64,000 nt of DNA from Microbotryum violaceum (GCA_001244265.2 CDLV01000016.1:682001-746000), one strand, 5' to 3'. Counted from the first letter of the stretch, positions 3,001-62,740 are shown. The notes: generated from the sequence alone by a model not told the origin. Numbers and translations: made by a program.

Positions 3001-3649
3001 CTGGCGTAACCAGTTCGTGAACGACTTGGAGCCGTCTAGGCGAGCGTGCTTGGGAAAGACGACTTTTGATGCGGTGGTGGCGGCGGCGGCGGCGGCAGTG
3101 GGCTGCGAGGCAGCGGCGGCAGAGGCGGGGGCGGCAGGGGGCTGCGAGGCCTGCAGGGCGGCGAGCTGGGCCTGCAGGGTAGCGAGTTGATCGGTGATCG
3201 AAGACGCAAGAGGGCTGGGGTCCCTGGGGGACGAAGGCGTGGTGGGGTCGCTATTGTCCATTGTGCAATGGTGCGATGGGTGGGCGGCTCGAGTGGCTGG
3301 GCTCGAGGAAAATGCGAGCGAGCGGCGGGCTGGTAGCTCGTTGGGCTTATAACCTATTCGATCAACTCTACTACGTCAGCGATGTAGTTCTAGCCAAGAG
3401 TGATGAATCATTACAACATACCTATTCGATCAACTCTACTACGTCAGTGATGTAGTTCTAGCCAAGAGTGATGAATAGGAAGCTAACAGTGTGAGAGCCT
3501 CGCGCCCCCAAGTTTCCAGGCTCGCTCCGCGCGCCTAAGTCCTGAGCCGATGCGCCCAGCTCGCTCCGCGCGCCTAGGCCCTGGGCCGGTGTGCCTGGCT
3601 CGATCCGCGCGCCTAAGTCCTGAGCCGAGCGGAGAGTGGATTCCTCACA
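1..3649 (-). mobile_element. Ty1/Copia element, family A, copy 1 (3' part runs off the window)
   Basis: Gag ATG at 3261, zinc knuckle, protease [13 protein letters not shown]-pre-integrase LHRCLGH, integrase [20 protein letters not shown] start. 5' LTR 3355-3649 followed by PBS-like GGTTATAAGCCC. Confidence 0.95.
3355..3649 (-). repeat. Copia A 5' LTR, long form (295 bp, TG...TA) with a 55-bp duplication and ~36-bp GC-rich tandem repeats
   Basis: Matches 15174-15469 and 24578-24880, and the 68-bp shorter LTR at 10332-10558. Confidence 0.9.
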
Positions 3650-18903
<15,254 letters not shown>

Positions 18904-19538
18904 TATGAAGTTGTCACGCCTGCTCAAGCGGTGGTAAGTCTCTGATCGAAGGACCAAGGGAGACCAGACCAAGAAGTTGCTTGTTACACACCTGCTCAAG
19001 CACTACAGTAAGTTACCACATCTAGAGGGGTGAAAGATGATAGGAAGAGTAGTGCTCACCTGCTCAAGCGGTGGTAAGTCTCTGATCAAAGGACCAAGGG
19101 AGACCAGACCAAGAAGTTGCTTGAGCAGGAGAGAAACCAGAGTGGGGCCATTTGGCTGGGCCCAAGTCAGCCCAGCCAAAGTCAGGCGCACGGACCTGGC
19201 CCAGGTGCAGAGACCAGGCCCAGAGTGGGAGAGCTAAGGTGGTGAAAAGTAGGCCAAAAGTGATCAAAACGAAGAGAGGAGGATGTTGAGGTAGGTACAA
19301 GATACAAGAAGGACATGAAGGAGATATTTGATCTCACACCCCCCTACTTCGAGTATCAGGGAGCACAGATACCGAGTCGACCGCGGTGCCGAGCAAAGAG
19401 GTCGCGTGACAATGCTTTGGTGAAGATGTCCGCTGTCATCTCACCAGTGTTGATGTACTGGACGACGATGTCGCCCATGGAAACCATATCCCGGACGAAG
19501 TGTTCGCGCAGGCGGATGTGCCGAGTCCGAGCATGAAA
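18904..19538 (-). mobile_element. Copia C 3' LTR (18904-19338) plus RNase H end, truncated
   Basis: Near-identical to 7086-7721. Ends where a B LTR begins. Confidence 0.92.
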
Positions 19539-20936
<1,398 letters not shown>

Positions 20937-25160: not shown

Positions 25161-26345
25161 TGTAAGGCGCGCGCCTTACTACGGGCCACAGGCACTAGAA
25201 ATAGAGATCGCATGCACCTAGCTTCTTCAGTTCCCTCCTCATTGGGCTGACACCAGAAGCTAGTTGCAATCCATATAACTTGCACCTGTCAGCTTAGGTC
25301 GCCAGTGAGGCTTGAGAGTGATCTCGTGCCTTTCACTTTTTTTTTTGACAGTGTTGAGTTCATTGGTACCCCGATGATACGGCCTACGTTCATCAGGCCC
25401 GGCCGTATTCAAACCATAAACCCATCAACTAACCCAGATCGGTCGAGGCAAGCCGATCCCACAACCATAGCACGCACACCCCCAGCCCCAGCACAGCCCA
25501 GCACGCCCACACACGCACCGCCTTCGCATGCCTCACCAGCCGCCCCCGCACAATCTCTGTGCACCATGTCCACGTCCACTGCCCCTAGCCCCAGCCCCGC
25601 GTACAAGCCCAATGACCCGCCCCAACTCCACAGCACTTATGCACCGCATCCCTTTCCCCCCTTACCCGTCTCCCTACTTGGTGCTCATGGCCCTCTCCTT
25701 GCCTCCGCCCTAGTTGATTTGGGATTGCCACAAACATTTGTCAGTAAGGAGCTTGTTCAGTAATTGGGTTTGGAAAGGCGCGCCCTGGAACCGCACTCAA
25801 AGTACACCCTTGCAATGCAAATCCAAGTGCCCACTGTCTTCAGCTGCACGCATTTTGTTTGAGTCACGCTCGATCTGGCCAACGGGCTCTGGACCGCAGG
25901 ACCGACGTACACCGAGGTAGCGCCCCTCGGGAAGGACCTTGAGATCATCCTGGGAGGCAACTTCATCTATCGGCACATGATGGAGCTTGGCCTTTTCCCT
26001 CAGCCACACCTTACCTGCAAAGCCAACCCCATACACTCTATTGACCTGCTGGTGCTGTCATCCCAGCCGTGCGTTACCGCGCGGGTTGCCGCAATTGCTC
26101 CGGTTGTTGACACCAAGGAACAGCTCCGCCTTTCCATGCTTGACCATTGCCTCTGAGCGGAGTTTGCCGACCGTTTTCCCGCGGATATCCTGCCTGTACA
26201 CTTGTACCAATCCCCGGTGCGACACCACATTGAGCTTGACAATCCGGCCACTGTCGTCAACCTTTGGGGATACCCCCTCCCAAAGAAGTATCGCAAGGCA
26301 TGGCACTTACTGCTACAGGAACATCTCGCGGCCGGTCGCCTCCGC

Positions 26346-29300
26346 TGTAAGGCCCGTGCGCCTGGGCCTTAGGAAGAGGGGACGCGCGCCTGGGCACTCT
26401 TAGTCTCTCTCCAGCGACTGATACGAGTGTCCAGGTGAGCACAAGGTGGATCAGAAGGCATTGTCATACCAGCGACTGATACGAGTGTCCAGTGTCAATT
26501 CTACATACTTTGGTCCTGTGATCCTTGTCGTCGTCGCTCAGGTGTACACTCCAACGGGGTGTATTACACTTTTTTTTTCACACCGGTCAAAGACGCACAC
26601 TGCCACGTGCGCCAACGACACACCCACGGAACGAACAAACGACAACGAACGGTAACAGACGAACATGGCGCGTGGCAAGAACTCCAAGAACTCCACCGCC
26701 CAACCAGCGCCACCATCGGCACCAGAGGAAAGGGAGGACAGCTCGGACGATGAACAGGAGGTTGCAACGATGCCAAGGGGCATGAAGCTCAACGCGCCCA
26801 AGCTTGCGAACGGCACGAAACTCACTCTCTCCTCGATCTGCGCATTCCTCAACGACATGGACAACATGTTCTTCCAGTACCAAGTGAAGAACATGCGACT
26901 AAAGATAATGTTCATCGCCAACCACATTGAACACAAGGCGCTCAAGGATTGGCTGGTGACGGCGACGGAGGAACGCACGTGGGACGAGCTTAAGGTCGCC
27001 TTCATCCGCAAGGCACTACCCTTGGATTTCGCCTTCACGACAGAGCAGCGTATTCGCCACAGCCACCAAGGCAACCACGACTACGCGACGTGGGCTTCGG
27101 GACTTCGGGCCTCACAGTTGCAGCTCGGCCAGACCGCCCTCAGCGACATCGAGTTCATCAAGATCCTACTGTTCAACATGGACCCTCAATTGAGCGTTGT
27201 TCTACGACAGAACGACCTTCTGTTGGGTACTGGCCTACACCAAGATGATTTAGACTACGTGGCGGCTTCAAAGGCGGCGCTCCCCAAGCTCAAGACATTA
27301 TCTTACGAGGTGTTCGAGCGATTGGCAAGATCCCAATGGAATGTGATCATAGCGGTTCGTCCTGTAGCAACTCCCCGAACGCAAACCTCGACTACGAGCC
27401 CAAAGACCAGCTCTGGCCGACCTTTTGTGACCTCAGCGACCACTCGACGCAGGCCGACAAGACTCACGGACCCAATGAAGGATTATCTCTCGGAGAAGGA
27501 GGGATGCTTTAGCTGCAGACGCATCAACACGGATCACCGCGCGAGCGACTGTACAGCCAACTGGCAGCAGGCACCGGATGTCCCGGAGGGGTGGGCCGAA
27601 TTCGAAAAGAAGACGGCGAAAGCGGCTAAGAACAACACCCTCCATCAAATTGCGGAAAACTCAGAAGACGACATCTCAACGGACGAAGAAAACGAGTACG
27701 CCCCTCAGTTCATCTCCACCATTCCCATCACTCTGCACAACAACACGAAGTCAAAGACGTTGCAGGCACTTGCTGACTCTGGGGCCTCTTCCTCCTTTAT
27801 CGCAGATAAGGTGGTTGAGAAACTGGGGTTAGTCATGCATCGTCTCCCTGTTCCTACATTGGTCAAAACTGCAATCAAAGGCCAAGCACGCGCGTTTCAT
27901 GTTACCTCGTTTGTAAAGATTCCGATCATGCTCGAGAATGGCGCATGGGAAGCGGGACACACGATTCTGAAGGTGGCTAAACTGCAGGAGCCCTTGGAAG
28001 TGGTACTGGGGTTCAACTTCCTTGTAAAACACAAGGTTACCATTGACTTCGCGGCACACAAGATCCTGGTGCCACATCCGACCATGCCTGACGTAAAGAT
28101 CGACCTTCTTGCGCCGGTCTTCGGACCCCACCCCCAGCGAGCCGCGGCGAGGAATGCCAAACGAAGCGATAAAGCTCGGATCAACTGGCGTGCAGTGATT
28201 GCCTACATCGACGGGGTCCAGCAAAGGGAAACGGAGTTGACGGAGTTGCGACGGCGGGAGGCAAAGCTACGGGTCGAGTTCGCGGATCGGTTCCCGGGGG
28301 ATATTCCTCCGGTTTCGACATATGAATCACCGGTCCGACACCGAATCGAGCTGAAGGACGGAGCAACAAAACCGAACTTGAAGGGTTATCGAGCGGCACA
28401 CCGTTACCGGGAAGCCTGGAAGCGCCTGATTGATCAGCACGTTGCCAATGGCCGCCTTCGAAAGTTGTCATCAGAGTTCGCGTCCCCGGCGTTTGTCATC
28501 CCAAAGAAAGGTATGGATAAGGACCCGTCAATCCAACCACGCATGGTCTGTGACTACCGAGTACTCAACGAAGGGACGGTCCGAGATCGCACACCTCTAC
28601 CACTTCCGGACGAGATTCTGTCGGTCTGCTCAAACGCGCGATTCTGGGGGAAGATCGACATGACAAACTCCTTCTTCCAAACCAAAATGGCCGAGGAAGA
28701 CATCCGGAAGACGGCGATTGTAACACCGTGGGGATTGTACGAGTGGACGGTAATGCCAATGGGACTCTGCAACGCCCCGGCAACGCATCAGCGCCGAGTC
28801 AACGAGGCACTCGGAGACCTTATCGGGAGCGTGTGTTTCGTGTACCTCGATGACATCACAATCTTTGCCGACACCTTGGAGGAACATGAACGACGGGTGC
28901 GACTCGTCCTGGAGGCGCTGAGACGGGCGGATCTGTACGTATCGCCGAAGAAGACGGAACTGTTTGCTGCCGAGTGCTTTTTCCTCGGCCACCAGATCAC
29001 TCGGGAAGGCATCAAGGTCGATCCTGACAAGGTGGAGCGGATCCATCAGTGGCCGCGACCAAGGACGGTGAAGCAATTGCGGGGATTCCTAGGTCTGGTG
29101 CAGTATCTGCGGAAGTTCATCGACAAGCTTGCGGATTTGACAGCGGTTTTAGTCCCGCTGACACGGAAAGGGGTGCATGTCGACGAAGGCTGGACGGGAG
29201 AGCACGACAAGGCGTTTGAGGCAATCAAGTCCTTGGTGGGCAACCTTCCTTCTCTACATCCCATTGACCATTCCGACAAGGGCGACCCATTATGGCTGAT

Positions 29301-31459
29301 GACGGACGCGAGCAATTGGGGAATCGGGGTGGCACTCAGTCAAGGAAAGCAATGGCAGACGGCCATGCCGGCAGGCTATTGGTCACGACAGTACAACCCA
29401 GCGGAAGGCAACTATGCAGCCCACGAGATGGAATTGCTTGCAATTGTGGACGCCCTTCATCACTGGCGGGCGGACCTTTTGGGTGTTTGATTCAAGATCC
29501 TCACAGACCACCACTCCTTGGCGGGCTTCATGAAGCAACCAAGCCTTTCACGACGACAAGCTCGATGGACCGAACGACTGGCCGATTACGACTTCGAGAT
29601 TGTATATGTACGAGGTCCAGAGAACACAGTGGCTGATGCATTGAGTCGTTACTCTTTCCCGGAGGAACCCACAGCCGGCCGCCAGGCGAGCGACAATGTC
29701 AATGTGCTGGCGGAGGCAACTCTCGATCCTGCCTTCCTTTGCAAACTCAGGGACGGTTACCGCAAGGACCCGCAATGTCAACAAGCTATCAAGAACATTG
29801 ACTCAACACCAGGCTACTCAGTCGACAATGGAATCGCACGGTTCGAAGGACGGATCCTCCTGCCAAAGACGGGGAACTTTCAGGAGGATGCGCTACATGA
29901 TGCGCATGATGCCGCAGGCCATTTTGGACTACACAAGACGTATGAACACCTACGCCGCAACTTTATCTGGTCGGGAATGAAGGATGCATGCAAAGATTAC
30001 GTTGAGTCCTGTGCTGCTTGTCAGACAATGAAGATGCATGGCACCGGTTTTGCCGGTCGGATCCACAATTTGAATGTGCCTGACCGGCCAATGCGGGAAG
30101 TTGGCCTAGACTTTGTCGGGCCACTTGTACCTAGCAATGGTAATGACGCACTGCTTACGGTAACAGATCGCCTTTCAGGCTACGTTTGCCTCATCCCCTG
30201 CCGCACGACGGACGACGCGACTACCACGGCGGACCGGTTCTTTGAGGGGTGGCATCGACAGTTTGGCATGCCACGAGTGCTGGTCTCCGACCGCAACAAG
30301 CTCTTCACAAGCGAGCTCTGGCGAGCGTACATGGGCCAGCTGGGAACGAAACTGGCAACATCGACGTCTTTCCACCCACAAACGGATGGCCGAAGCGAGC
30401 GAACGAATCGGACCGTGATCCAAGTCCTGCAAACAATGGTCAACCGACGGCAAAATGACTGGTCAAAGCACTTGGCTACGGTGGAGTTTGTGATCAACTC
30501 CAGTATGAACAGGTCGACGGGGAAGACGCCATTTGAAGTGGTACTTGGGTTCACGCCGGAGCTGACACCGATCACCCCAGTGGAGGGCTCAACCACGTCA
30601 CAGGCAGTCAAATCCATCGTGGAACAACGTGAAGCAGCGGTTGCGGAAGCCCGAGACAATTTGGCAATTGCAAAGATCCGACAGGCCAACCAGAGCAACA
30701 AGACGAGGAAACCGGAGCCCGGGTTTGCAGTGGGCGACATGGTCTTAGTCGACTCGCGGGATCGACGACTGCGGTACAAGGCCGATGGGGAAGCACGGTC
30801 AGCCAAACTCTTTCCCCGGTTTGACGGCCCCTACGAAGTCCTAGCAGCACGACCCGAAACCTCAAATTACAAGCTGAAGCTCAAGGCGGGGGACAAGTCG
30901 CACAACGTCTTCCACGCCTCCAAGCTCCGACGCTGGGTAAAGAACAATGGGTGGTGTTCCCAGGACGAGAGGCAACGGAACCAGCGGCCATTATTGTCCA
31001 AGGAAACGAGGAGTGGGAGGTAGAACGGATTGTGGACGAAAAGGGGAAGGGGTCAAGGAAGAGGTTCTTGGTGAAATGGAAGGGGTGGGCAGACAGCGAC
31101 AACACATGGGAGCCATGCTCACACCTGGAAGACACCGCAGCGTTGGAAGAATGGGAGAGTGGGAAGGCGGGGGGAGGACAAGGCAAGGAGGGGAGGGTGT
31201 AAGGAGGGAGGCGAGTTTGGTTTAGGTGGTGGAGAGTGTAAGGCCCGTGCGCCTGGGCCTTAGGAAGAGGGGACGCGTGCCTGGGCACTCTTAGTCTCTC
31301 TCCAGCGACTGATACGAGTGTCCAGGTGAGCACAAGGTGGATCAGAAGGCATTGTCATACCAGCGACTGATACGAGTGTCCAGTGTCAATTCTACATACT
31401 TTGGTCCTGTGATCCTTGTCGTCATCGCTCAGGTGTACACTCCAACGGGGTGTATTACA
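26346..31459 (+). mobile_element. Ty3/Gypsy chromovirus-like element G2, full length, nested in G1
   Basis: 223-bp LTRs 26346-26568 and 31237-31459 with 2 differences seen. TSD TCCGC. Confidence 0.97.
26665..31202 (+). pseudogene. G2 gag-pol polyprotein (one stop at 29488, one frameshift near 30950)
   Basis: CFSC..H...C knuckle, LADSGA, YLDD, TDAS, HHCC integrase, GPY motif, chromodomain [13 protein letters not shown]. Confidence 0.92.
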
Positions 31460-34383
31460 TCCGCCCCTCTCGGTTGTCATACTCATCACCTCGTTCATCA
31501 TCCCAAAGAAGGGCTGCAACGTGGATCCCACAATTGCACCGCGCTGGGTGAATGACTACCGCGAGCTCAACAAGCACACCGTCAAAGACCGCACACCTCT
31601 GCCCTTGCCTGATGACATTCTCTTGACGTGCTCCAATGCGCAATTCTGGGCCAAGATCGACATGACCAACTCCTTCTTTCAGACCAAGATGGCAGAAGAG
31701 GACATCCCTAAGACGGCCATGTCCACACCTTGGGGTTTGTACGAGTGGACCGTTAGGCCCATGGGCCTCTGCAATGCCCCTGCCACCCACCAACAACGTG
31801 TCAACGAGGCACTCCAAGGCTTGCTTGGCACCATCTGCTTTGTCTACCTCGACGACATCACCATCTTTGCGGACACACTGGAGGAGCACGAGGCCCGTGT
31901 TTGCCAAGTCATGGAAGCGCTGCGCTGTGCCAAACTCTACTGCTCTCCAACCAAAACCAACCTTGCCACCGCGGAGTGCTTGTTCCTTGGCCACATCATC
32001 AACCATGCCGGTGTGCATGCTGATCCCAAGACAATCCAGCGCATTGAAGACTGGGCCCTACCTAAGACGGTCAAGGAACTCAGGGGTTTCCTCGGGCTGG
32101 TGCAGTATCTTCGCAAGTTCATCCCTGGCCTCACTGAGCACACCGCCGCGCGACTCCCTTGACATGCCAAGGACTCTCATCTATTGCCACACTCTGGACA
32201 CCCAACGAAATTCGCCACTTCAAAGCCATCAAGGACATTGTCACCTCACTCAACTGCCTTTGGCCGCCCGACCACTCCGCGGACGCCACTCCGTTCTGGG
32301 TGATGACTGATGCAAGCAATCACGGAATTGGTGGTGTCCTCCTCCAGGGTCAGGAGTGGAAGATGGCTTGCCCCATTGCGTACTGGTCCAGGCAATACAT
32401 ACCCGCTGAACGCAACTACCCCACTCACGAGCAGGAACTCCTTGCCATTGTCAAAGCACTCAAGGAATGGCGCATCGACTTGCTTGGCGGTCACTTCCAC
32501 ATCCTCACTGATCACTCCACACTCGAGCACTTCCAGACCCAGCGCACCATTCTCTCTCGCCGACAAGCCCGTTGGCTGGACACGCTGGCCAAATTTGATG
32601 ACAACCTTCGGTACCTGCCCGGCAAGGACAACATTGTAGCCGACGCCATGAGTCGATACTCCTTCACCAATCCACTGCCCACCCTAGTGGCCTCTGTCTC
32701 CCATGTCAAGCTTTCGGATGCTGTCAAGCAGCAGATCCTCAACGCGTACGAGACCGACCCATTCTGCCAGCAAGCCATGGCTAACATTGGCTCGGTCACA
32801 TCGGACTTCAAGATTGTTGATGCATTGCTGTATTTACGGGGCCGGCTTATCATTCCATCACTAGCCCCGCTCTGTGAGTCCATCCTTCACAATGCTTATG
32901 ATGCGCAGGGGCACCTAGGTGATATGAAAATGTACCGGACCGTTCAGCAGGCATACTTCTGGCCAAACATGTCCCGGGACGTCAAGCACTACGTCCAAAA
33001 ATGTGATTCTTGTCAACGGAGGAAGGCTCGTACCACTTGCATTGCCAGCAAACTCCACTCGCTACCTGTCCCGGCACAACCCATGGCCAACATTGCCATC
33101 AGTTTTGTCGGACCGCTTCCCGCCAACAAAGGCTTCGACCGTGTGTTAACAATCACCGACCGCCTGTTGGGGTATGTCCGTTTGGTCCCTGCACACAAAG
33201 CTGACACTGCAGCGGAGGTTGCTGCGCGCTTCCATGAAGGATGGCACCGCCTCTTTGGCCTCCCTCAAAGCATTGTCTCGGACCGGGACAAGCTGTTTAC
33301 AAGCAAGTTCTGGACTGCCCTACACAAGCGCCTGAACACCAAGCTCCAGCTCTCTTCGGCGTTTCACCCGGAGACGGACGGTCGCAGCGAGAAAACGAAC
33401 AAGACTGCCTTCCAGATTCTTTGAGCGCTCGTCAACAAGGAGCAATCCAACTGGGCGGAGTGCCTTGCTGTCTGTGAGTATGCCATCAACTCGTCTCTCA
33501 ATGTCGCTACCGGGAAAACCCCCTTCGAGCTTGTGCTTGGCTACACGCCCTCCCTTGCCCCACTTGCCCGTGTCAACGGTGATGACAACTTGCCGTCCGT
33601 TGAGGAGTTGCTTGCCCTTTGATTCCAAGCCTGCAAAGATGCCCAGGACCAGCTTGCCATTTCCAAGGTTCGGCAGGCAGCACAGTCCAACAAGAGGTGT
33701 CGGGATGAACCCTCTTGGGCTGTTGGGGATCTTGTACTTCTCAACTCGAGTGATCGCCGAAAGCGGCTCCACACCCACAAGCACCGCGCAGCCAAGCTCA
33801 TGGACCGCTTTGACGATCCCTATTGCATCATCAAGGCCCAACCGTAAATCTTGTCCTACACCCTGCAGCTGAACGGGGACGATGCAGCGGTACCATTTTT
33901 TCACACGGGCAAGCTCAAGACCTACTGCAAGAACGACACAGCCCTGATCCCCAACCGTGAACCTGCGCGACTGGGCCCAGTGGATGTAGGTGGCGAGCCA
34001 GAATACATCATTGAAGACATTGTTGACAAGAGGATCCGTGCTGGCAAGCAGCAATACCTCGTCTCGTGGGTCTCGTGGCTGTCAGACAGCGATTCATGGG
34101 AGCCTGCCGAGGCACTGGAGGATACGGAGGCATTGGATAGGTGGGAGCGTCGGAATGAGGAGTAGGATTTTCGACCGGAGGAGGGGATTTGTTTCAAGGC
34201 GGGGAGAGTGTAAGGTGTGGGCCTTACTACGGGCCACAGGCACTAGAAATAGAGATCGCACGCACCTAGCTTCTTCAGTTCCCTCCTCATTGGGCTGACA
34301 CCAGAAGCTAGTTGCAATCCATATAACTTGCACCTGTCAGCTTAGGTCGCCAGTGAGGCTCCAGAGTGATCGCGTGCCTTTTA

Positions 34384-35083: not shown

Positions 35084-36840
35084 GCAGACTGGTGACTTGT
35101 ACTTTGACACTGGTGGGATATTGCTCGGGAATTGATCCGCAAATTCCGCTTGCAGCATCACTTCCTGTTGTCGCAGTTCCGCGTGCTCTGCTTCCTCTTG
35201 CTGCACCCGTCAATGTACGCGATGACAGCATTCCAGTTGATCCGCACCTTGTTGCTCCGCTTGGCGCCCCTTTCCGTGCGTTGCTGGGGATGTGGTCCAG
35301 ACATTGGTGCGCACAGGTTGTTTGTCATGTTGGGAGCCTCAGGGTGTGGGACCAGGATCCGGTGATTTTTGCAATCAATGTTCACCTTGTGCTTTGTGAG
35401 GAAATTGAGCCTCAACACCACTTCCAACAGCTCCTGCAGCTTGGCCACCTTCAGAATTGTCTCTCCGGCTTCCCAGGCCCCATTTTCCAACGTGATCAGG
35501 ATTTTCACAAATGAGGTAATGTGGAACGCGCTCTGTTGGCCTTTGATTGCAGTTCTGACCGTTGAAGGTACAGGCAAACGGTACTTAACTAACCCCAGTT
35601 TCTCAACCACCTTATCTGCAATGAAGGAGGAAGAGGCCCCGGAGTAAGCAAGTGCGTTGAACGTCGCCGAGCCTTTGTCGTTGTGCAGAACCATGGGAAT
35701 CATTGAGAGAAATCAAGGGGCGTACTCATTTTCTCTGTCCGTTGAGAAGTCGTCATTGTTGCAATCAGCAATCTGGTTGAGAGTCTCCTTTGGGCCTGCG
35801 TTCGTCTTTTTCTTCTCCTGTTTGGCCCAGCCTTTGGGAACATCCGGCGCCAAGTGCCATTCAGCCATGCAGATTCGCAAGAAGTGGTCGACATTGATTT
35901 GGCAGCAGCTGACACATCCGTTGTTGCGTCGCAGGTAGTCCTTCATTGCATCGGTGAGCTTGTTCGGCGTGCGGCTGGTGTCGGCGGTCGTGGTGGCAGA
36001 AGCCTGGTAGGAGTTCGCCTTCGTTGCGGTGACCGCCATCGCCTGAGGTCGTGGAGCGGCTAAATTTCGGATTGCCGACATCATGTTCCATTGAGACCTT
36101 GCAAGCTATTTGAACGCTTCATACGAGACCGCCTCTGGTTTGGCGAGTCCTGCCTTTGATGCTGCTATGTAGTCCAAGTTGTCTTGATGCAGACCGGTAT
36201 TGACCAGGAGATCGTTCTGGCGCAGTACTACACTCAGTTGGGTGTCCATGTTGAATAACAGGATCTTGATGAACTCCGCGTCGCCGAGAGCCGCCTGTCC
36301 GAGCTGGAGCTGAAGGGCGCGAAGTCCCAATGCCCGCGTAGGGTAGTCCATGTTCCGTTGTTTGGAGTCCCGGATTTGTTTCTCCGGTCGAATGCGAAGT
36401 CCAGAAGTAGTGCCTTGCGGACCATCGCAACCTTGAATTTGTCCCACGTGCGGTCTTCCGTCGACGATACCAGCCAGTCCTTCAGGTGGTCATGCTCAAC
36501 ATGGTTCTGTATGAGCATGATCTTGAACCCCATATCAGAAACGCCATGTCGTATGAACAGGTTGTCCATGTCCGTCAGGAAAGCTCGGATTGAGGCAAGG
36601 GTGAGTGTGCCGTTCGTAAGCTTGGGGGTGATGAGCTTTAGTCCCTTCGGCTTCGTCAGCACCGGCTCCTCGTCCAAACTTGATTCGGCAGTCTGCTCTT
36701 GTTGGTTTGACACTGGTGGTGGTTTCCCTTGGGCCTTCTTGCCACGCGCCATCGTTGTTCGTTATCGTTTGTTGGGGCTTTTGTTCGTTCCGTTGGGGTG
36801 TCGCTGGCGCACGTTGAGGGGCGTGCGTCTTAGACCGTTA
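35084..36840 (-). mobile_element. Gypsy G3 (relative of G2): 5' UTR, gag and protease, truncated
   Basis: MARGKK gag at 36752 aligns with G2 gag. The 5' UTR matches G2 26581-26664. Confidence 0.92.
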
Positions 36841-39617
36841 CTACCTCTATATATATAAAAAGGTGAGTTAAGGAATGTACCTAAAATCGCTGTTTTTAAC
36901 TAGGTTGCGGCCTGGAGGGCCGCCTGGGGTGGGTCTACCAGCATACCGTTGTGTCTGCCGCACCTGTCTGTGGTGTCGGGGTTCCGATCAGAAGTCATGT
37001 ACAAGCCCTGTGGTGACTTTTGTATTTTCCGCGCCGTTCCAACGAAGCTACAGCGCTCCCAGTATTTTCCTTCTTTTTGTCGCTGACATAAAACAATACT
37101 TCCACTCATATGGTATTTAATGAACCGCAAGCGCGTGGCTTTGCATGATATTGCTTCTACAGCAGCGCTCTGCCTGACGCGCGAGGCGAGGGCTGGCGTT
37201 TGTCACGTGATGCGGTGCGCCGGCGATGTCAGTGTCATTCCGGCAGTCGACCAGCGGCATTAGGGGCTGAACAACAAATCAAACCACGTAAATAATCCTG
37301 CGTCACTCCCTCGAACCTTTCCTTTCTCCCTCTCACTCTCATCCAATTTTAGTGACACTCATTCAAGAACAAACCCTCGCTGCTATGTCCCGGTCCCAAG
37401 GTCGCCAGGGTCTCAGGGAGGGCCATCGCAACCTTGCCAAGTTTTGGGCGCGAGGGTAGCGCCGTACCATGGGCCACCATGGGCCTGCTCGAGCGCCCGC
37501 TGCTGGGCGCCCCGAGGCTCGACCCTCCTCTTCGTCCCGCTCCGATCAACAGAATCAGCCCCCGGCGCGTCATGACAACAATTTAACCGATCTTGGCATT
37601 GCGACACGTATACGAGCCTGCCGTGCAGCCGTACAGAACGGACAGCGTGGTCAGCGCGATGGCCAACTCGACGCTGGGCTCGCCCCACCACCACCTCCGC
37701 AAAGGCGAGTGCGCCGGGCTCGAATCGCGCTCAAACCCCTCAAGCCCCACGTTTTCGCAGGGCAAGGTGCGGCTACCTCCCCCTCCCCAGCCCAATCTCG
37801 AGTATCGGCAGCTTCTTCAAGGCTCGGATAGCGGTCAGTTGCTCCGTCCAACAACATTCGTCTGCAGTAGACCCACATGCTGAACTGTTCTACCCACCCA
37901 CACAGAAGCTAAAGCATTCCGCGAGAATGCCCGGTCTTACAATAACGCGTTGTCCTTTACTTCGCTCGCTGCCCACTGGACCAAACCCAAGTGGGCACTC
38001 TAGGACCTCCCGTGTTTCGTGTGTTCGGCCGCCTCTATCATTGACTCGGTGCCCTGATCCCTGCCGTGAATCAACGCCCAGCCTTTGCCCAGACATGGCT
38101 GATCGACCCGGCCGAGGCCACCGACACACGACTTCAAGGACCCGACAGCGCAGGGACTCGCATTCAAAGATCAACGCTGACCAAGCTCGAGTCCATGTTG
38201 CGCACCGGCAATCGCTTTGTGAGGGAGTTCGCATCGGCCAAACCTCGCGCAGGTTGGGATACGGCCAAAGAGTGGATCCTGCGCCTCTGCCTCCCGCCAG
38301 GCCGGGACCGACTGTCATGAACCAGTAATCCTGCAATTCCTAACTCGCTTCATTGGGGGTTGGCCATACATAGTACCAAGCTGTCCACTCCTTTCAGAGT
38401 GGATATTGTACCCCTTTGAGGTCAGCTTAGGCTAGTGGTAAAGCTTGGACCCACTCCTGACACCGACGCACCCACAACCCTCCTACATCGAGCACGGAAA
38501 TGGCGATGCTTATCTGCGATTCCGACACCAACACGGGGGATCGTGGACGTCAAGACCTTATTTTCCAGGTGCACGGTGATCGATGTCCCGAGGGTCGGCC
38601 CACTTGGCAAGTACCAAGTCGTTAGCTCGCTCCATCCGTCTGCGATGCCTCTCCGTTACCCACTGCTTTTTCCTGCAGGGGAAGATGGCTTCCACCCCAA
38701 CATTCCTCTTTGCGGGTTCCACCAAGCCAGGCCGCCAATCGCCAGAAACTGAGAGCAGATCAACAATGGTGTCCAATTGCGCGAGGTACTTGCCGGTCTC
38801 GGTCTGGATGACGAAGACGAACAGGAGGACGAAGACCGCGACAATGAGGATGAAGACGGCGAGGAAGGGGACGAAGAGGATGGTGATGGCGAACGTACGC
38901 GTCTTCGGCTCTTTCTCTGATGTTCCATTCTGCCGAAGGCGCAAGCACAGACTGACGTTGAACTTTTGAACACCTAGGACGAAGGTCAAGTAAAGGGGTC
39001 GAGGTGGCGAGTCTCGCGTTCACATTCTTTGCGCACTACTTGCCAAACGCGACGAGTACTTCTCAATCCCGCATTGCACCCAGCGTCCCTTCCTGGAGTC
39101 TGTGATTTACGGATGTACTCCCAAGTCGAGACCGATCGACTCAACAAATCCGGCTGCATCAAGAGAACCTACGCCTCACCACGACCCAAGGCATCAACGG
39201 CTTGACCCCGAACCAAATTGGACGTTCCATGACCTTGGGCTCAACGTTCAAGAATAGACCGCGCGACATCACGTGGCAGCGATACCAGGATGCGATGGCG
39301 TGCGTTGTCAAACATGGAAAGCCTCCGCTGCTGATCACGATGACGTACGACCCCGACTCACCGGAAATCAAGGCTGCACTGGGGCCGTTAAAGCATGCAA
39401 CCGTCCGGATCTCATTGCACGAGTGTTTGAAGTTAAGTCCGGCAACAAGCGACATGCAGGCTGTTTCGGCACTGAATGTAAGATGAATGGATTTTGTTTC
39501 TTTGCTGTATTTCGTATTGTGTTTTTTTAACCTCTGCGCTGATATCATGTAGACTGTTCAATTATCCTGCTATTTTTTGAATTTCATCATCCCGTTAACT
39601 TAACGGGTTCCCACTGG
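36841..39617 (+). mobile_element. Internally deleted Helitron, copy 1
   Basis: Rep N-terminal remnants (YNNALSFTS, YPLLFP.GEDG, YQDAMA..KHGKP..ITMT, RPDLIARVF). 3' hairpin cccgttaa-c-ttaacggg at 39591-39607, then CTGG. Flanked by A and T. No helicase. Confidence 0.9.
38313..38462. repeat. 150-bp solo LTR (TGTCA...TGACA) in Helitron copy 1
   Basis: TSD CCGAC on both sides. Interrupts the Rep frame. Confidence 0.88.
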
Positions 39618-41000
39618 TTGAAGCATAGCACGACAACATGATCCCATGCTTATTTCTCGACGAAGACCTGGACTGCTATTTGAACAGACGATGACTTCGA
39701 TCGATTATCGCCGCTCACCAACATGACGATCGCCGAGCTCCTCGCCTTCGGTGTATCATGTCGTTCCTGCCGACGCGTCTCTTCGCACCGAGTTGTCCAA
39801 AGACAAGCCCACCCAGTAATCGACCTACGGATACCTACCCTACCCGACTCTCCAGACCAGGGACGTGTTTCTCGCCACCGATGCTCTGATCAGGATATCG
39901 ACCTTTGGCCGTCGCGTTGACAAGCAGTACGGAGCGCTACTAGTAGCACATCGCTCTCGTCATTTTGGATCGCTAGACGGAGTTGTAACCACTGCCACAC
40001 CATTGGAGATCGGATCTCTGATTTGCTTTGACCTCAAGCGTGGCATGCAGCTGCGATCAAATTGCTTATGAAGAAGAACCGCTGTCCATAGAGGCTTCGC
40101 TTCATCAAAAAAGCATGCTATTTCACTCACATTGATGGTACTATGCCATTTCGCATGATTGTTCCGCATGATTGATGGTCGACAGGTCATCGAGTCATTA
40201 GGCCCGCCAACGATTACATATTGTCCCACAAGGATATTACCTCATGTTACCCCGACGAGCGCATAATCAGCACGTGCGCACGTGCCGAGCAAAGATTGCC
40301 GCCCTTCGGAGCGTGCCCGGGCCGCGAGCACTGGACACAAATGCCACTTGATACCAATGACTAGTGTGTCGGACCGACACAGCACCGTTCGTGACTGATG
40401 AACTACTCCACGGTGGAGGAGGGCTGTACCATTAGCTACTGAGATGTTGATGTTCGCACACAGCTATCAGACGAGGCCGAAACGCACGCCTAGTACAGGA
40501 CTTTGCACTCCGTGCCATTCGCCGCCGTTCCGCTCTGTGCTGGTCTGTGGCGGCTGGCTGTAGTGTTGAGACTGTCGTCAATTTCCCAAATTTCCCAAAC
40601 TCGCGGCGCCTCCCAAGCCGCCCCCCAGCGTTGAGATCGTCTTCAATCTGCCAAACTCCGGCGCGCCTCAAGCCGCCCCCGGCGCTGAGACCGTCGTCAA
40701 TTTCCCAAGCTCGCGCCGCCGAATTTTTCTGGAACAAACCTTCAGCTCTAAAGAGCTTCAGGGATATGTTCTCCGAACTCTTCCAATGTACCACTCAAAA
40801 TAGACACAAATCGACCCCTCAGACACCTTATCCCGATGTACACATCGGCCTAAAATCGCTGTTTTTCGAGACGCACATTGGGCTGAGCTTTCCCGGGTCC
40901 TACTATAGCGTCGGCGAATCGACGGGCTGCGCAGGGCTGCGCTAGGACTGCGCTAGGCCTCGCTCTGCGTCGCTAAGCGGTCGCTAGGCCTTGCGAGGCA

Positions 41001-45806: not shown

Positions 45807-46013
45807 TGTGAGGCCCGTGCGCCTGACCCTTGGGAAAAGAGATGCGCACACCTGGACACTCTTACTGAGGAGAGACTAAGTGGATCAAGAGGCATTGTTG
45901 TATGAGCGACTAATGTAGAGTGTCCAGTGTCAATCCTACATACTTTGGTCCTGTGATCTTATCGTTGTTGCTCCGGTGTGCTACGGGGTGTATTACACTT
46001 TTTTTTTTCACAA
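45807..46013 (+). mobile_element. Gypsy 5' LTR (45807-45997) plus C-T10 tract; probably the detached 5' end of G3
   Basis: Diverged homologue of the G2 LTR (TGTGAGGCCCGTGCG...GTATTACA), followed by cttttttttttcacaa. Confidence 0.88.
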
Positions 46014-48859
46014 CCAGTGGGAACCCGTTAAATTAACGGGATGATGAAATTCAAAAAATAGCAGGATAATCGAACAGTCTACATGATATCAGCGCAGAGG
46101 TTAAAAAAACACAATACAAAATACAGCAAAGAAACAAAATCCATTCATCTTACATTCAGTCCGAAACAGCCTGCATGTCGCTTGTTGCCGGACTTAACTT
46201 CAAACACTCGTGCAATGAGATCCGGACGGTTGCATGCTTTAACGGCCCCAGTGCAGCCTTGATTTCCGGTGAGTCGGGGTCGTACGTCATCGTGATCAGC
46301 AGCGGAGGCTTTCCATGTTTGACAACGCACGCCATCGCATCCTGGTATCGCTGCCACGTGATGTCGCGCGGTCTATTCGAACGTTGAGCCCAAGGTCATG
46401 GAACGTCCAATTTGGTTCGGGGTCAAGCCGTTGATGCCTTGGGTCGTGGTGAGGCGTAGGTTCTCTTGATGCAGCCGGATTTGTTGAGTCGATCGGTCTC
46501 GACTTGGGAGTACATCCGTAAATCACAGACTCCAGGAAGGGACGCTGGGTGCAATGCGGGATTGAGAAGTACTCGTCGCGTTTGGCAAGTAGTGCGCAAA
46601 GAATGTGAACGCGAGACTCGCCACCTCGACCCCTTTACTTGACCTTCGTCCTAGGTGTTCAAAAGTTCAACGTCAGTCTGTGCTTGCGCCTTCGGCAGAA
46701 TGGAACATCAGAGAAAGAGCCGAAGACGCGTACGTTCGCCATCACCATCCTCTTCGTCCCCTTCCTCGCCGTCTTCATCCTCATTGTCGCGGTCTTCGTC
46801 CTCCTGTTCGTCTTCGTCATCCAGACCGAGACCGGCAAGTACCTCGCGCAATTGGACACCATTGTTGATCTGCTCTCAGTTTCTGGCGATTGGCGGCCTG
46901 GCTTGGTGGAACCCGCAAAGAGGAATGTTGGGGTGGAAGCCATCTTCCCCTGCAGGAAAAAGCAGTGGGTAACGGAGAGGCATCGCAGACGGATGGAGCG
47001 AGCTAACGACTTGGTACTTGCCAAGTGGGCCGACCCTCGGGACATCGATCACCGTGCACCTGGAAAATAAGGTCTTGACGTCCACGATCCCCCGTGTTGG
47101 TGTCGGAATCGCAGATAAGCATCGCCATTTCCGTGCTCGATGTAGGAGGGTTGTGGGTGCGTCGGTGTCAGGAGTGGGTCCAAGCTTTACCACTAGCCTA
47201 AGCTGACCTCAAAGGGGTACAATATCCACTCTGAAAGGAGTGGACAGCTTGGTACTATGTATGGCCAACCCCCAATGAAGCGAGTTAGGAATTGCAGGAT
47301 TACTGGTTCATGACAGTCGGTCCCGGCCTGGCGGGAGGCAGAGGCGCAGGATCCACTCTTTGGCCGTATCCCAACCTGCGCGAGGTTTGGCCGATGCGAA
47401 CTCCCTCACAAAAGTGATTCTTGGTACGCAACATGGACTCGAGCTTGGTCAAAGTAGATCGTTGCATGTGACTGTCTGCGCCGTCGGGTTCAAGTCGAGT
47501 GTCGGTGGCCTCGGCCGGGTTGATCAGCCATGTTTGAGCAAAGGCTGTGCATTGATTCACGGCAGGGATCAGGGCGCCGAGTCGATGGTAGAGGCGACCA
47601 AACACGCGAAACACGGGGGGTCCTAGCGTGCCCACTTGAGTTTGGTCCCAGAGGGCAGCGAGCGAAGTGAACGACAATGCGTTGTTGTAAGACCGGGCAT
47701 TCTCGCAGAATGCTTTAGCGTCTGTGTAGGTGCATCGCACAATTCAGCATGTGGGTCTACTGCAGACGAATGTTGTTGGACGGAGCAACTGACCGCTATC
47801 CGAGCCTTGAAGAAGCTGCCGATACTCGAGATTGGGCTGGGGAGGGGGAGGTAGCCGCACCTTGCCCTGCGAGCAGCCCGTGCTGAAGTGTCTGGTCGAC
47901 TTGGACCTTTCGCACTCCCAGTGCCGAGCCTTGCAGTGGGTGCACACGGCCGTCTGCGGGCCGAGGTCGTCGCGGATCGAAACGTGGGCTTGAGGGGTTT
48001 GAGCGCGATTCGAGCCCGGCGCACTCGCCTTTGCGGAGGTGGTGGTGGGGCGAGCTCAGCGTCGGATCGGCCATCGGGCCCTCGTGGACCACGCTGTTCG
48101 TTCTACAAAGCTGTACGGCGGACGCTTATACGGGTCGTAATACCAACATCGGTCGAGTGGTTGTCATCACGCATGGGGAGCTGATTCTGTTGATCGGAGC
48201 GGGACGAAGAGGAGAGTCGAGCAGCCGGCTCAGCAGCATGCTAGCAGGCGCTGGAGCAAGCTCGAGCAGGCCAGTAGCAGGCCCATGGTCTCCGAGTCCC
48301 ATGGTACAGCGGTACGCTATCCTCGCGCCAGAGACTCGGCGCGGTTGTCACGAAAATTCGATGAGTGGGAGGGAAAGGAAAGAATTAGAGAGAGTATCGC
48401 GGGACTATTTACAGCCCCTGGAAAATCATGTCGTTGTTCAGCCCCTAAAACCGGTGTCGCGTTGTAAACAGTACGTCACGTGATCGACGGCGCATAGGGC
48501 AGCGTAAGCCGCGCCCGCAAAGACAGCGGGACCACGCCCGAGCGCTGTAGAAGAAGCGTCATGCAAACCCACGCGCTTGCTATACATTAAATCCCAAACA
48601 AACTGATCAATAGTTGGGTACCCTGCCAAAAATCAACGAAAATTGTCCTCGGGCTGTAGCTCGACTTTTATGGTGCAGAAGATGTGGAAAGGGTCGTACA
48701 TGACTTCTGGTCGTGACGCCAATATCACAGGCAGGTGCGGCAAACACAATACTGTAGTGGTACATTCACTATAGGCGGCCCTCTGGGCCGCAACACAGTC
48801 AAAAACAGCGATTTTAGGTACTTGGGTCGCGGATCGACCTTTTTTTTATAAAGAGGTAG
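46014..48859 (-). mobile_element. Internally deleted Helitron, copy 2 (inverted relative to copy 1)
   Basis: Reverse complement of 36841-39617 with the same termini (CTACCTCT... and hairpin plus CTGG). Confidence 0.9.
47166..47315. repeat. Same 150-bp solo LTR in Helitron copy 2
   Basis: Reverse complement of 38313-38462, TSD GTCGG. Confidence 0.88.
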
Positions 48860-48923
48860 TTCCGTAGGGGGTTTTCTCGTCTTGCAAATTAGCGATGAGT
48901 TTCATACAAAAAAAAAAAAAAAA

Positions 48924-49045
48924 TCACTTCACTTCACTTCACTTCACTTCACTTCACTTCACTTCACTTCACTTCACTTCACTTCACTTCACTTCACTTC
49001 ACTTCACTTCACTTCACTTCACTTCACTTCACTTCACTTCACTTC
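48924..49045 (+). repeat. (TCACT)n microsatellite, about 24 units, after an A-run
   Basis: Directly visible. Confidence 0.97.
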
Positions 49046-49101: not shown

Positions 49102-51350
49102 ATGTCTACAGGAGACCCTGGGTCCCCACCGCTGGCACCGCCACCACCGGTGTCCGCCACCAGCGTCCAGCCACCTCGTGACCAGATCCCGATAAGCTCG
49201 AAGAAGACGCAAGCCACGGGCCCCGCCACCGCCGCACCCAACTATGCCGCCGCTGCGAGTCAGGCGACTCAGTCACCTGAACAACAGCAACAACAACAAC
49301 AGCGTTCCAAGGCTCTGGGCAGCCTCCTACAAGCCATGGGTGCTGTACCCGGAAACCGCATGGATCGTTGGGTCCAGGCCATCTACTTCGCCGAACTCTA
49401 CCCCGTCGCCACCGCCACATCGCTGAAATTCTCGGCCTTGAACGCGAACCGGTCTGTCGAGAACATCTTTGATTACGCCCTTGAAGTGACTCTGACTCAC
49501 CAGAGCGCCTCGCGAGCGTCTCATGCCGACAAGACCGATCTCGTGGCCTGCGTCACGAGGCTGTTATTGCCGATCTCTCCTATCTGCTTTGAGCCTGGAG
49601 TTCCTCTGCCGGACCACCTTGCAGCCTATCGACCACAGATCCTAGGCGTACAACATTCATCAATCCTGCGTAATGGGGCGGCTCACCATCGCGTTACCGT
49701 TGGGTTCGTCACCGGCGAGGCACGTGACGCTGCGCTTACGACGCCCCCTGCTCTCACTTGGCGATCGGCGAAGGCCCGCTTCGCGAAATCTCACAGGTTC
49801 CACCATAACATGGTCGAGCTTCGAATCAACGTCGGTGTTCAAGGAGTGCCTTCCATGGATGCCATCATCAAATCGTTCCAATTACTAGTGCAGGACTTGT
49901 CAGGCAAGGGACATTCGTGCCAACTTGTGCAGGTTCTGCGCATTATCAGCGTGGACAACGCCTCGGCCTTTGCCCACGTTGCCGGAGACTACTCAGCTTT
50001 CCTACACTTCGATGACGACTCCCTGTTCAAACGCCCTAACACGACCTTGAAAGAGATCCTACCTTCGAGAATCGGCCTTCCCACTCGAGGCATCCCCGTC
50101 ACCGCCCTTCGCCATGACTATGAGAAGGAGGCGGCTTGCGGTAGGTGCCACTTCGTTGGTCACGTGGGAACCTGCGGACTGGATCAGGAGAGCAAGCGAA
50201 AGGAGGCTCACAACGGCAACGGCAACGGCAACACCAACGCCAACAAGAACACCATCACCAACGACACCAACATTGCGGAGGCCGAGGCCCCCATTCCTGT
50301 GCCGGTTGTTAACAGGATCGCATCACAGAATCGCTTCGCCGGGCTCGAGGTTGAGGAGGGACAGGAGGAAGCGGTAACTGGCCAGAGCGGACAGGGGCCA
50401 GAGGAATCGGGGGAGGAGGACGCTGGTGATAAGGCGGATGACGAGGACTCGGAGGACTCGGAGATGGAATCAGAGGCGACCGTGAAAACGGAGGTCATCA
50501 AACTTAAGAGCGAGGACGAGTCGGTTTTAGTGGACTGCGGAGGATCCGATGGAGAGGTGATTGATGAGGACGAGGTGATGGCGGATGGAAGGGGCGAAAC
50601 AGAAGGCAAGGTGGCGACGGAGATGGAGGAAAGGGAGGTGGCGACGGAGGTGGACGATGTGGACGAGGCAGGGGGAGCGACGAAAGCGGAGAACGTGGAA
50701 GCGACGGACTTAGGGGAGACGAACAGGCTGGACAATGACGACGACAGCGACGCAACCGCAACCGCCGCCACCGCTTCCCGCGAAACGACACCCCACGAAC
50801 CAACCCCACCTTTGTCACCCGAAACTCTTGCCAAGTCGCTTCGCGAGGGGAGGAGTGGGACAGGATCAGAGCTAACTGGGTTGAGCAGGCACGACTCGAG
50901 CGGGACCAAAGCATCGAGAGGAGGCTCGACGCTGAAACCCCTTTGGTGCGTCACAACTTTGCCACGTGGGATGAGGACGGTGAGATACGTTCCATCAATA
51001 TCAGGGGGACCGCTTCGAAGTTCAAAAAGCCGGTAATGAAGAGGTCGCAGACTGCGGCGGACCTCAGTGACCCGAGTGACGAACCGACCGACGCCAAGCG
51101 AGTGATCATCAAAGGGAAGAGCCGCGTCGTTGTCAAGGATGGAACAGAGGGGCGGAGGGTGACGAGGTCGATGTCAGCGGCGGCGGCGATGCCGGTTGGC
51201 GTGACGAAAGTGGACCGAGGGAAAGCAAAGGGGGTAGCCGAGGAGAAAAGATGGTCCGACCACGAGCCCGAGGACGATGTCCTGCCCGCCCTCCCCCTCT
51301 TTGAGGACGTCACCACCGCCAAGAGCGCTTCGACCTCAACTACCCATTAA
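49102..51350 (+). CDS. LINE ORF1 (CCHC-like knuckle, acidic tail; frameshift near 50945)
   Basis: [13 protein letters not shown] motif. Lies directly upstream of the APE ORF. Frames 49102-51036 and 50943-51350. Confidence 0.75.
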
Positions 51351-61200: not shown

Positions 61201-62740
61201 GAGCGAAGCGTCCGTGCAAGACCGACATGGGAACGGCCATGAGCGCACGCGGGAACGCACCCGCTTGATGAACAAGAGCAGCGACGTCGACGAGCGAGGC
61301 CTGCATGTGGTAAAGTCCGTTCTTGAGCTCGCCAGTGTGACACACCGTGTCAGCAATGGAGACCGTTGCCTTGGCCCGAGTCAGACGGATGTCGTTACCC
61401 CCGATGTCGGCACGACTGGCGGAGAACAGGTTGACCGGAGCGGTGGGCACGAACAAGGCGCCGTTGAGTTGGCCAATGCTGCCGTCGAAGGAACGAACAA
61501 TTGCGGAGCCGACGCCTTCAATGGAGTTGACAACTTCACCAGTGATGCTTTCGAGCGGAGCTGGCTTGCACTTGCGGAAGGACGTGAAACATGCGCAATT
61601 GTTGACAATGTGGTGCGTTGCCCCGCTTTCCAGGATGATGGAGGGCCTGGCCAAGGTGGACATCGTAGCTGTGAGGTAGCCAAGCACAGGACCGTCAACC
61701 AGCGTCGAGATATCAGGCGCAGTGACGAGCGAGGCGGAAGGCGCTGAAGGAGCCTTCGTCTTCTTCCCCTTGGACCCAGCCTTGTTGTCTGGGCACTTGT
61801 GATTCCAGTGCGGACCTCCGCAGTGGTGGCACGGGGAGAAAGGAGGCGCGGTAGACTTGTCCGCTGTCGCAATCGGGCTTGCCACCATGGCAACGGGTTT
61901 GGGAGCTGGCGTCTGATCCGCCTGCGTGTGGAGCGACTGGAGGACCTCCGTCGGGCTCAGTAGCCTATCCAATCCTTGCCGAAGTGTTTGCGTGTAGTAT
62001 TCACGGTACAGATCCTTGCCAAAGTGGACAAGGCGGAACGACACAATCTGCTCGAAAGTAAGCTCGTGTCCCAAGAGCGTGTTAAATAGCTCAATGGTCG
62101 TCGCTTAGTACTTTGCGAAGGCGTCCATGCCGGTGGGAGGGGGTCCCACGTCGAGCAACGCTTGGAGACGGATGAGAATGTCAGCCACCGTGCCGGTACC
62201 GACCGCCTTCTTGATCATCTGTAAGACTTCCGCAGGAGTGTGGTCGTAACCATCCTTTATGTGTTTTCGGATGTCCGGTGAGACAGAACGCATCAGCAGC
62301 GCGACCGCTTGGAAATTGGCGTGATCGAGATCCGTGCGCGTGTTGGGTGATTGGACGGGCGTCGCGAGGGTGCAGTTCCAATAGTCGCCGCCAAGGGCGC
62401 CTCGCACGTCGTCGATCCATTGCGACCAGCCCCCAGCGTTTCGCAGATGGCATGATGGGTCAACATCGCGTGGTTTGACGAGGACAATAGGGGTTGTTCC
62501 CCCTGTGACCATGAGAGGAGTGCTCATGTCTTGATGACTTGAATTGGCTGGCCGCTCGGTTGGGCTCGTAACCTATTGAAACTGAACAGCGATGTGCTGA
62601 ACGAGTTGGTGGCAGGGACGAGCCAATGAGTTTGTAATCAAGTGAAGAAGAGGAGACAAAGACGCGAATCGCGCGCGCGACTAATATAAAGTGGAGACGC
62701 GCGTAGTGTGGATTTAAGGCAAGAGTAATTTACTTCAACA
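58272..62740 (-). mobile_element. Copia family D, full length, degenerate
   Basis: 167-bp LTRs 58272-58438 and 62574-62740. PBS GGTTACGAGCCC, PPT, TSD AACTC/GACTC. Gag ATG 62527; VRSDNGGEF, YVDD, YSDSDWG. Confidence 0.95.

Follow-up and report, generated by a model that had tools for sequence, protein, structure and literature searches.

The 64,000-nt stretch of the Microbotryum violaceum genome analysed here (the window; CDLV01000016.1:682001-746000) contains a Gypsy LTR retrotransposon, G2, on the plus strand (26346-31459). Two 223-bp LTRs with TG..CA ends (5' LTR, 26346..26568; 3' LTR, 31237..31459), separated by two differences, bound the element, and the target site duplication TCCGC flanks it (26341-26345 and 31460-31464). 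The gag-pol region (26665..31200) was found by Pfam to encode protease, reverse transcriptase (RT), RNase H and integrase, in that order, and a chromodomain, and a purine-rich tract lies 5' of the 3' LTR (31216..31236, plus strand). This copy is disrupted by a stop at 29488-29490 and by a frame change ahead of the chromodomain (PF00385, E 5e-15, 31014-31157), the frame of which differs from that of the integrase. The C-terminal chromodomain, TG..CA LTRs, 5-bp target duplication and purine tract are those of a Ty3/Gypsy chromovirus, and the true LTRs and rve integrase separate G2 from Penelope-like elements, which are recognised by a pseudo-LTR and a GIY-YIG endonuclease. The closest named RT is that of Microbotryum saponariae (84%), followed by those of Rhodotorula and Rhodosporidiobolus.

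In Tf1-type self-priming, the 5' end of the RNA is complementary to the primer site. A C followed by nine T residues (26569..26578, plus strand) occupies the place of a tRNA primer-binding site in G2, and the LTR contains no A-run able to pair with it, as priming of that type would require. A C and T-run instead of a tRNA primer site was also present in G1, the Gypsy element that hosts G2, and in 42 of 80 metagenomic relatives, and it is possible that the poly(A) tail primes such elements. The T-rich stretch without a tRNA site matches the account of SM-Tcn1 in the relevant part of PMC2864245, which leaves its priming open. The Tcn1-like chromoviruses known from fungi and from non-seed plants (PMC2864245, PMC6317226) share with G2 the Gypsy domain order, the chromodomain and the T-rich stretch, but the intron passages of these two papers mention no LTR intron. 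G2 is, from its sequence, a chromodomain Gypsy element, and calling it Tcn1-like refers to the T-rich primer region only, the RT tree having been built without any Tcn1 reference.

The window holds several further repeats. A G2-like gag region (69% identity; 35087-36837, minus strand) adjoins a stretch (36840-37002) that replaces its 5' LTR and is present again at 48696-48860. Inverted repeats of about 1.9 kb with 97% identity (37755-39620 and 46011-47872) flank about 6.4 kb, and the two ORFs tested had no Pfam match. A (TCACT)n array (48924-49045) follows an A-run and lies directly ahead of a LINE-like element with endonuclease (51305-52549) and RT (52264-55368) regions.

Analysis of the G2 LTRs revealed an exact 24-nt repeat arranged as an exon end and the tail of a short intron would be. 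In the 5' LTR, copy 1 (26411..26434), the putative exon 1 and 5' R, ends in CAG and is followed by a 58-nt unit (26435..26492) that starts with the donor hexamer GTGAGC (26435-26440), continues through a unique middle (up to 26468) and closes with copy 2 (26469-26492), which contains the branch-like motif CTGAT (26476-26480) and again ends in CAG. A CT tract (26404..26410) lies directly ahead of the presumed transcription start, and the remainder of the LTR (26493..26568), the putative exon 2 and U5, terminates in a predicted hairpin. The 3' LTR has the same arrangement, with copy 1 at 31302-31325, the unit at 31326-31383 and copy 2, the candidate landing site for first strand transfer, at 31360-31383 (all plus strand). 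The repeat, its place before GTGAGC and at the end of the 58-nt segment, and its occurrence in both LTRs had been claimed in the preliminary description, and we confirmed each of these positions. The copies match exactly with no extension to either side, the longest exact repeat in 300 shuffled G2 LTRs being 11 nt versus the 24 observed, and the middle of the unit is not a copy of the sequence 3' of copy 2.

The splice-like signals of the unit agree with those of host introns, with its size at the short edge. The host set comprised 41 distinct introns deduced by spliced alignment of tubulin genes, of which a few calls are doubtful, after duplicates and one 1253-nt artefact were dropped; the MET8 locus, considered as a splicing control, had no apparent intron. 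The G2 donor matches host donors, which were GTGAGT in 13/41, GTGAGC in 4/41 and hence GTGAGY in 17/41, and CTGAT and CAG are likewise host signals, representing 8/25 branch motifs and 25/41 3' ends, respectively. The donor-to-branch distance of 45 nt falls within the host cluster of 42-52 nt (25 introns with CTRAY), whereas the branch-to-3'-end distance of 13 nt is below that of 24/25 host introns (20-47 nt in those 24), and the length of 58 nt is below that of 40/41 (median 81 nt). A putative intron is the best reading of the unit.

Copies of the G2 LTR elsewhere in the genome retain this arrangement. A similarity search, in which 40 of 195 candidates were scored, returned near-identical copies. 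When the whole genome was counted by pattern, 136 LTRs matched the two-unit form exactly (across the three subfamilies), 12 the one-unit form of G2a with at most two mismatches, and four had three units. Inspection of 146 places assigned 97 to G2a, 22 to G2b and 26 to G2c, with one spurious. Both copies change in concert by subfamily, reading CTGATACGAG in G2a, CTAACGTAGAG in G2b and CTAACACGAG in G2c with few single-copy exceptions, and GTGAGC, a CTRAY (CTGAT or CTAAC) and CAG are constant across the three subfamilies while the middle of the unit varies. The LTR at 45807 (45807..45997, plus strand), a 5' LTR, does, as had been noted earlier, carry one diverged unit with no donor behind it. 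It was rejected as an ancestral single-unit state, being a rearranged member of the sister subfamily G2b in which copy 1 and its donor are missing and a 15-nt segment (45867-45881) is inverted; most of the other G2b LTRs retrieved (19/22 by donor count) are two-unit and keep GTGAGC as donor. Differences among 76 G2a LTRs concentrate at CpG (76/134), and the unique middle of the G2a unit has no CpG.

Two candidate signatures of splicing and strand transfer were sought among these copies. For eight of the 12 one-unit LTRs a partner LTR could be traced, and it was two-unit every time (the 3' LTR was the short one in five and the 5' LTR in three), with agreeing target duplications in 7/8 pairs; the others comprised two solo LTRs and two without a partner within about 10 kb. 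Elements collapsed at both ends, considered as proof of splicing, numbered 0/8, and unit loss by itself says nothing about splicing, since a deletion running from one repeat to the other yields the identical product. A second signature, errors of strand transfer where copy 2 begins, was likewise rejected: five non-CpG changes occurred at three sites in 76 LTRs, and the partner LTRs, compared by eye for a subset, did not share them.

The preliminary description had likened the G2 LTR to Copia LTRs of the same design, and the layout, a repeat followed by GT and a second repeat copy ending in AG, was indeed found in three Copia families of the window and, in other genomic copies, in a fourth. Copia A (7102..7305, minus strand) has a 64-nt repeat then GTGAGC and a 140-nt unit, Copia B (3354..3476, minus strand) a 55-nt repeat then GTATGT and a 68-nt unit, with the last G of the acceptor AG falling outside the LTR, and Copia C (19796..19919, plus strand) a 55-nt repeat then GTATGC and a 69-nt unit. 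The Copia D LTR in the window (62573..62740, minus strand) is single-unit, as were 25/40 scored Copia D LTRs, several at both ends of the element, in a search whose single-unit query favoured such copies; two- and three-unit Copia D LTRs elsewhere have a 52-nt repeat then GTATGT and a 78-nt unit. No sequence is common to G2 and the Copia units, whose local alignments to it score 14-23. The 140-nt unit of Copia A contains an inner 68-nt GTGAGC..CAG piece (7241-7174, minus strand) that closes with a 10-nt repeat remnant and precedes GTGTGT, as if two introns surrounded a zero-length exon, and one metagenomic element (L161, minus strand, 8641-8789) resembles this nested unit. Nested Copia elements also make up a 7.7-kb segmental duplication (1-7722 and 11821-19539, 99.8% identity).

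Both LTRs of G1 (25161..25335, plus strand, and 34209-34383) are single-unit in the window. From an arm upstream of this unit, like that described below for G2, we noted the prediction of a two-copy form with GTGC before searching, and two-unit G1 LTRs were then found elsewhere in the genome, with a GTGAGT donor, CTGAC and TAG; the predicted fourth base was wrong. Thus, from repeat scans and genomic copies, an AG/GT boundary closes the repeat in some copies of 6/6 examined LTR families of the window, compared with an AGGT background of 0.003-0.004 per site, and the branch-like motif is CTGAC in G1, Copia B and Copia C. In 2/23 two-copy G1 LTRs, copy 2 is extended leftward by 6 and 14 nt, and the added nucleotides match those preceding copy 1, as variable transcription starts would produce; the constant right edge in this analysis is a script artefact and no evidence. 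Unit number differed between G1 5' LTRs (12 two-unit, two one-unit) and 3' LTRs (six and nine; Fisher p 0.02), and the corresponding value for G2a alone was p 0.50. In discordant G1 and G2 elements the 5' LTR tends to exceed the 3' LTR by one unit, which suggests a reverse-transcription event rather than symmetric slippage.

An RT alignment search of metagenomes gave 560 confirmed stretches, of which the best 80 were fetched; among these, 42 had a poly-T site, and for 35 of the 42 at least 150 nt of the LTR was available. A repeat of at least 16 nt was present in 5/35 assessable LTRs (L116, L119, L121, L122 and L127), and all five end in AG/GT with a spacing of 50-65 nt. A sixth relative, L115, displays the layout in its 3' LTR, also with AG/GT. 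These six share 52-61% RT identity with G2, have LTRs that cannot be aligned to it (local alignment scores of the repeat units, 14-23) and represent three or four lineages, since L119 and L122 are close and L121 and L127 related. The plain tandem repeat of L140b served as a control, and L120 (a 20-nt repeat then GTAGAT, 300 nt before the RT at a contig start, with no recognisable LTR) was excluded from the counts. In a quick RT tree the layout-bearing relatives fall in two non-sister groups, requiring at least four changes of layout with G1 coded as lacking it (before its two-unit form was found) and L126 perhaps a collapsed copy. The 30/35 LTRs without a repeat are an upper bound because metagenome assemblies may collapse such repeats. 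A GTGAGT/C hexamer lies in the last 110 nt of 16/30 repeat-less LTRs (L131, L133, L134, L136-L138, L140, L141, L143, L157, L161, L168, L170, L173, L181 and L186), mostly 37-61 nt from the end; a donor without an exon copy is perhaps an older U1 switch.

These data bear on the earlier suggestion that Gypsy and Copia elements converged on the layout. Convergence is plausible, because 30/35 related Gypsy LTRs have no such layout, but is unproven, and an old exchange of an LTR module or shared ancestry with losses may apply instead.

A second feature of the G2 LTR is an arm in U3 (26384..26405, plus strand) whose sequence complements both copy 1 and the donor and which would be contained only in RNA that includes U3, as at the 3' LTR. 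None of 500 dinucleotide shuffles gave an arm as good, and the predicted cost of opening the donor in nascent RNA was 14.5 kcal/mol with U3 versus 2.8 without. The arm beat shuffles (at most 1/500) in G2a, G2b, G2c, G1, L115, L116, L119, L121, L127 and Copia A, was weak in L122 (35/500) and was absent in Copia B (127/500), Copia C (480/500), Copia D and the control L140b (223/500). The 3' LTR of Copia B lacks the last G of the acceptor, and therefore an arm would be unnecessary there. Across the arm-bearing lineages, opening of the donor in nascent RNA was predicted to cost 11-16 kcal/mol when U3 was included but 1-4.5 when the RNA began at copy 1, a gap that shrinks as the RNA lengthens; at equilibrium the donor was often paired even in long RNAs beginning at copy 1 (0.42-0.99). 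The donor hexamer was mostly no better paired than other hexamers starting with GT: a fraction of 0.03-0.44 of the 256 paired equally well, rising to 1.0 in L122, Copia B and Copia C. TATA-like boxes occur 30-33 nt upstream of copy 1 in L119, L121 and L127 and 44 nt upstream in Copia D, and no TATA was found in the LTRs of G2, L115 and L116.

Assembled contigs were compared at another G2 5' LTR beside host genes (L083:300-7110), to which four contig sets were aligned. Contigs of X2 and X5 join across a 93-nt GT..AG host intron and hence behave like RNA, and those of X13 like DNA. The plain 58-nt skip was absent from all four sets at this locus, including X13, and its absence is uninformative because the DNA-like X13 also lacks the joint even though the genome has 12 joined copies. 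One X5 contig (depth 55) runs to LTR position 74 and, after four letters, resumes at position 124, which we read as a unit-less form with a 13-nt duplication, U3 included; its sequence had no match in the genome. The contig is compatible with splicing and equally with a genomic variant, the sample having no matched DNA; if spliced RNA, its U3 would argue that closure of the 3' LTR is incomplete. Among the contig rows listed, none ended loosely in poly(A). The G2 insertion at this locus lies near an Argonaute/Piwi-like gene (L083:382-2849, minus strand), and paralog-like contigs of that gene are deep in the RNA-like X2 and X5. The RNA junction 26434/26493, put forward in the preliminary description as a test, proved to be confounded, because spliced RNA with its 5' end at copy 1 would read exactly as the genome does from 26469 onward, and 12 LTRs of the genome are already in the joined form; splicing of such LTRs would escape ordinary RNA-seq mapping.

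In sum, the LTR module is real and conserved, and it is very probably built around splice signals. We propose, with a probability of roughly 0.55, that the G2 unit is a spliceosomal leader intron rebuilt by reverse transcription. Transcription would start at copy 1 or a few bases before, so that in the 5' LTR copy 1 would be both exon 1 and R and the 58-nt unit would be spliced out. RNA of the 3' LTR would include U3, and the predicted fold of the arm would cover the donor such that the unit is retained, with the RNA ending within or after copy 2. Strong-stop DNA of the minus strand, copied from the spliced leader and consisting of exon 1 and U5, could then anneal to copy 2, and its extension across the middle of the unit, then copy 1 and finally U3, would return the intron to both new LTRs, copy 2 being rewritten from copy 1 in every cycle. 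The likely benefit would be intron-dependent accumulation of mRNA, U1-dependent suppression of a putative 5'-LTR poly(A) site or both. Such renewal would explain the concerted change of the copies, the AG/GT edge, the location of the arm ahead of the repeat and the leftward extension of copy 2 in G1, and it predicts that marks in copy 1 transfer to copy 2. It does not explain unit losses from one LTR or the 3' bias of single-unit LTRs, and mis-landing on copy 1, which should strip the unit from both LTRs, was seen in 0/8 traceable G2a elements. Other points that weigh against it are the plain 58-nt skip seen in none of the contigs, the shortness of the unit and of its branch-to-end distance, homogenisation of the copies that unit gain and loss could achieve by themselves, the many single-unit Copia D LTRs, the weak or absent arm of L122 and Copia B, C and D, the donor pairing at equilibrium and the TATA that G2, L115 and L116 lack and that is distant in Copia D.

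A different use of a genuine intron would be one in which, as in HIV-2, unspliced RNA is reverse transcribed and spliced RNA is translated, with recombination between the two and unit gain and loss keeping the copies alike. The one- and three-unit LTRs beside 136 two-unit ones indicate that unit gain and loss could homogenise the copies without splicing, and the common occurrence of such LTRs, the predominance of pairs with an extra 5' LTR unit, as expected from copying of unspliced 5' ends, and a short unit and branch distance that may render splicing inefficient all favour this scheme, as does the HIV-2 precedent in the part of PMC3315320 concerned. We nevertheless consider it unlikely, for it gives no account of why the intron tail equals exon 1 in each lineage, including those with unalignable LTRs, or of how copy 2 acquired sequence from upstream of copy 1.

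Two further explanations dispense with splicing. If AG/GT were a foamy-virus-like switch that binds U1 without catalysis, U1 at the 5' LTR would block polyadenylation, whereas at the 3' LTR the U3 arm would conceal the binding site; the repeat would then be a second strand-transfer or structural element. The logic of such a switch is described in PMC3694450. The arm over the donor as the best-conserved additional feature, the indistinct branch motifs of L119 and Copia D, the AAG 3' ends in four relatives and the GTRAGY near the end of 16/30 repeat-less LTRs are consistent with such a switch, but most spacings, at 50-78 nt, keep to the size of fungal introns, copy 2 ends in AG without exception and CTRAY is preserved through sequence changes. 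We consider this explanation improbable. A plain tandem duplication of U3/R sequence, homogenised by template switching and slippage and carrying splice signals by chance, would accommodate unit numbers from 1 to 3, single-unit elements such as G1 and Copia D of the window and the missing 58-nt skip in all four contig sets. It does not accommodate the closure of the repeat by AG/GT in 6/6 window families and 6/6 metagenomic LTR repeats at the low background frequency given above, a unit middle unrelated to the sequence after copy 2, or the lack of an arm in the control tandem repeat; chance tandem duplication is strongly disfavoured, and we regard it as very improbable.

Comparison of the renewed leader intron proposed for G2 with published systems revealed partial parallels. 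The foamy virus LTR, as presented in the part of PMC3694450 concerned, has its major splice donor in R, U1-dependent suppression of 5'-LTR polyadenylation and a 3'-LTR donor hidden by an alternative fold; the G2 donor likewise lies within the LTR and is tentatively predicted to be accessible in the 5' LTR and covered in the 3' LTR, but that part of the source mentions neither an exon-copy repeat nor a short LTR-internal intron. According to sections of PMC8557442, the Penelope pseudo-LTR has a 75-bp 5'-UTR intron and Chlamys-3 a 398-bp intron, so that in these elements, as is presumed for G2, a leader intron in a terminal repeat adjoins the start site; in contrast to them, G2 is an integrase-type Gypsy element with true TG..CA LTRs and a target duplication, and the same sections leave the mechanism of retention open and do not mention an exon copy. 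HIV-2, in the part of PMC3315320 concerned, has an optional 140-nt 5'-UTR intron within the leader part of the LTR, as the G2 unit may be, but its particles exclude spliced genomic RNA, which the G2 model takes as template. In split-intron retroviral vectors (Ismail et al. 2000, as outlined in the review PMC3182074), LTR copying during reverse transcription positions a donor much as the G2 model places its splice signal, although that system, so far as the review outlines it, is engineered and one-way, removes the packaging signal and does not restore the same intron. Introns born by segmental duplication, as covered in part of PMC3265369, resemble G2 in that the intron tail duplicates the upstream exon, but they arise in one event and then diverge, whereas the G2 copies remain matched and copy 2 has no GT after it. 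LTR-derived introners, as characterised in part of PMC12130899, share spliceosomal recognition of LTR sequence with the G2 reading, but there an entire element or solo LTR forms the intron of a host gene, whereas the G2 unit makes up only a portion of the LTR and lies in RNA of the element itself. None of these comparison systems, in the parts of the sources bearing on them, uses an exon copy as a device for intron renewal. Among titles and abstract openings of mostly open-access literature, no published description of an exon-copy LTR intron layout was found, and mentions of introns or splicing in papers on Microbotryum transposable elements yielded nothing relevant.

Retroelements shed introns when they pass through spliced RNA. 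Penelope-like elements are a noted exception whose mechanism is unexplained in the relevant part of PMC8557442. In Cryptococcus, also a basidiomycete, intron removal strongly cuts mRNA for most genes tested, according to the corresponding part of PMC3744415, and therefore an LTR element in such hosts would gain from an intron. A more general proposal, which we advance tentatively and at slightly less than even odds, is that in both superfamilies of fungal LTR retrotransposons exon 1 is R, the copy in the intron tail is the landing site, splicing at the 3' LTR is blocked either by a hairpin in U3 or because the acceptor becomes complete only with the primer site, the intron is rebuilt in each cycle and the genomic RNA is spliced as host mRNAs are, with independent origins in Gypsy and Copia elements. 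If true, the rebuilt intron would represent a new role for first strand transfer and would account for the expression of such elements, and it would give fungal LTR retrotransposons a general escape from the rule of intron loss by which the decay of intronless transcripts is avoided.
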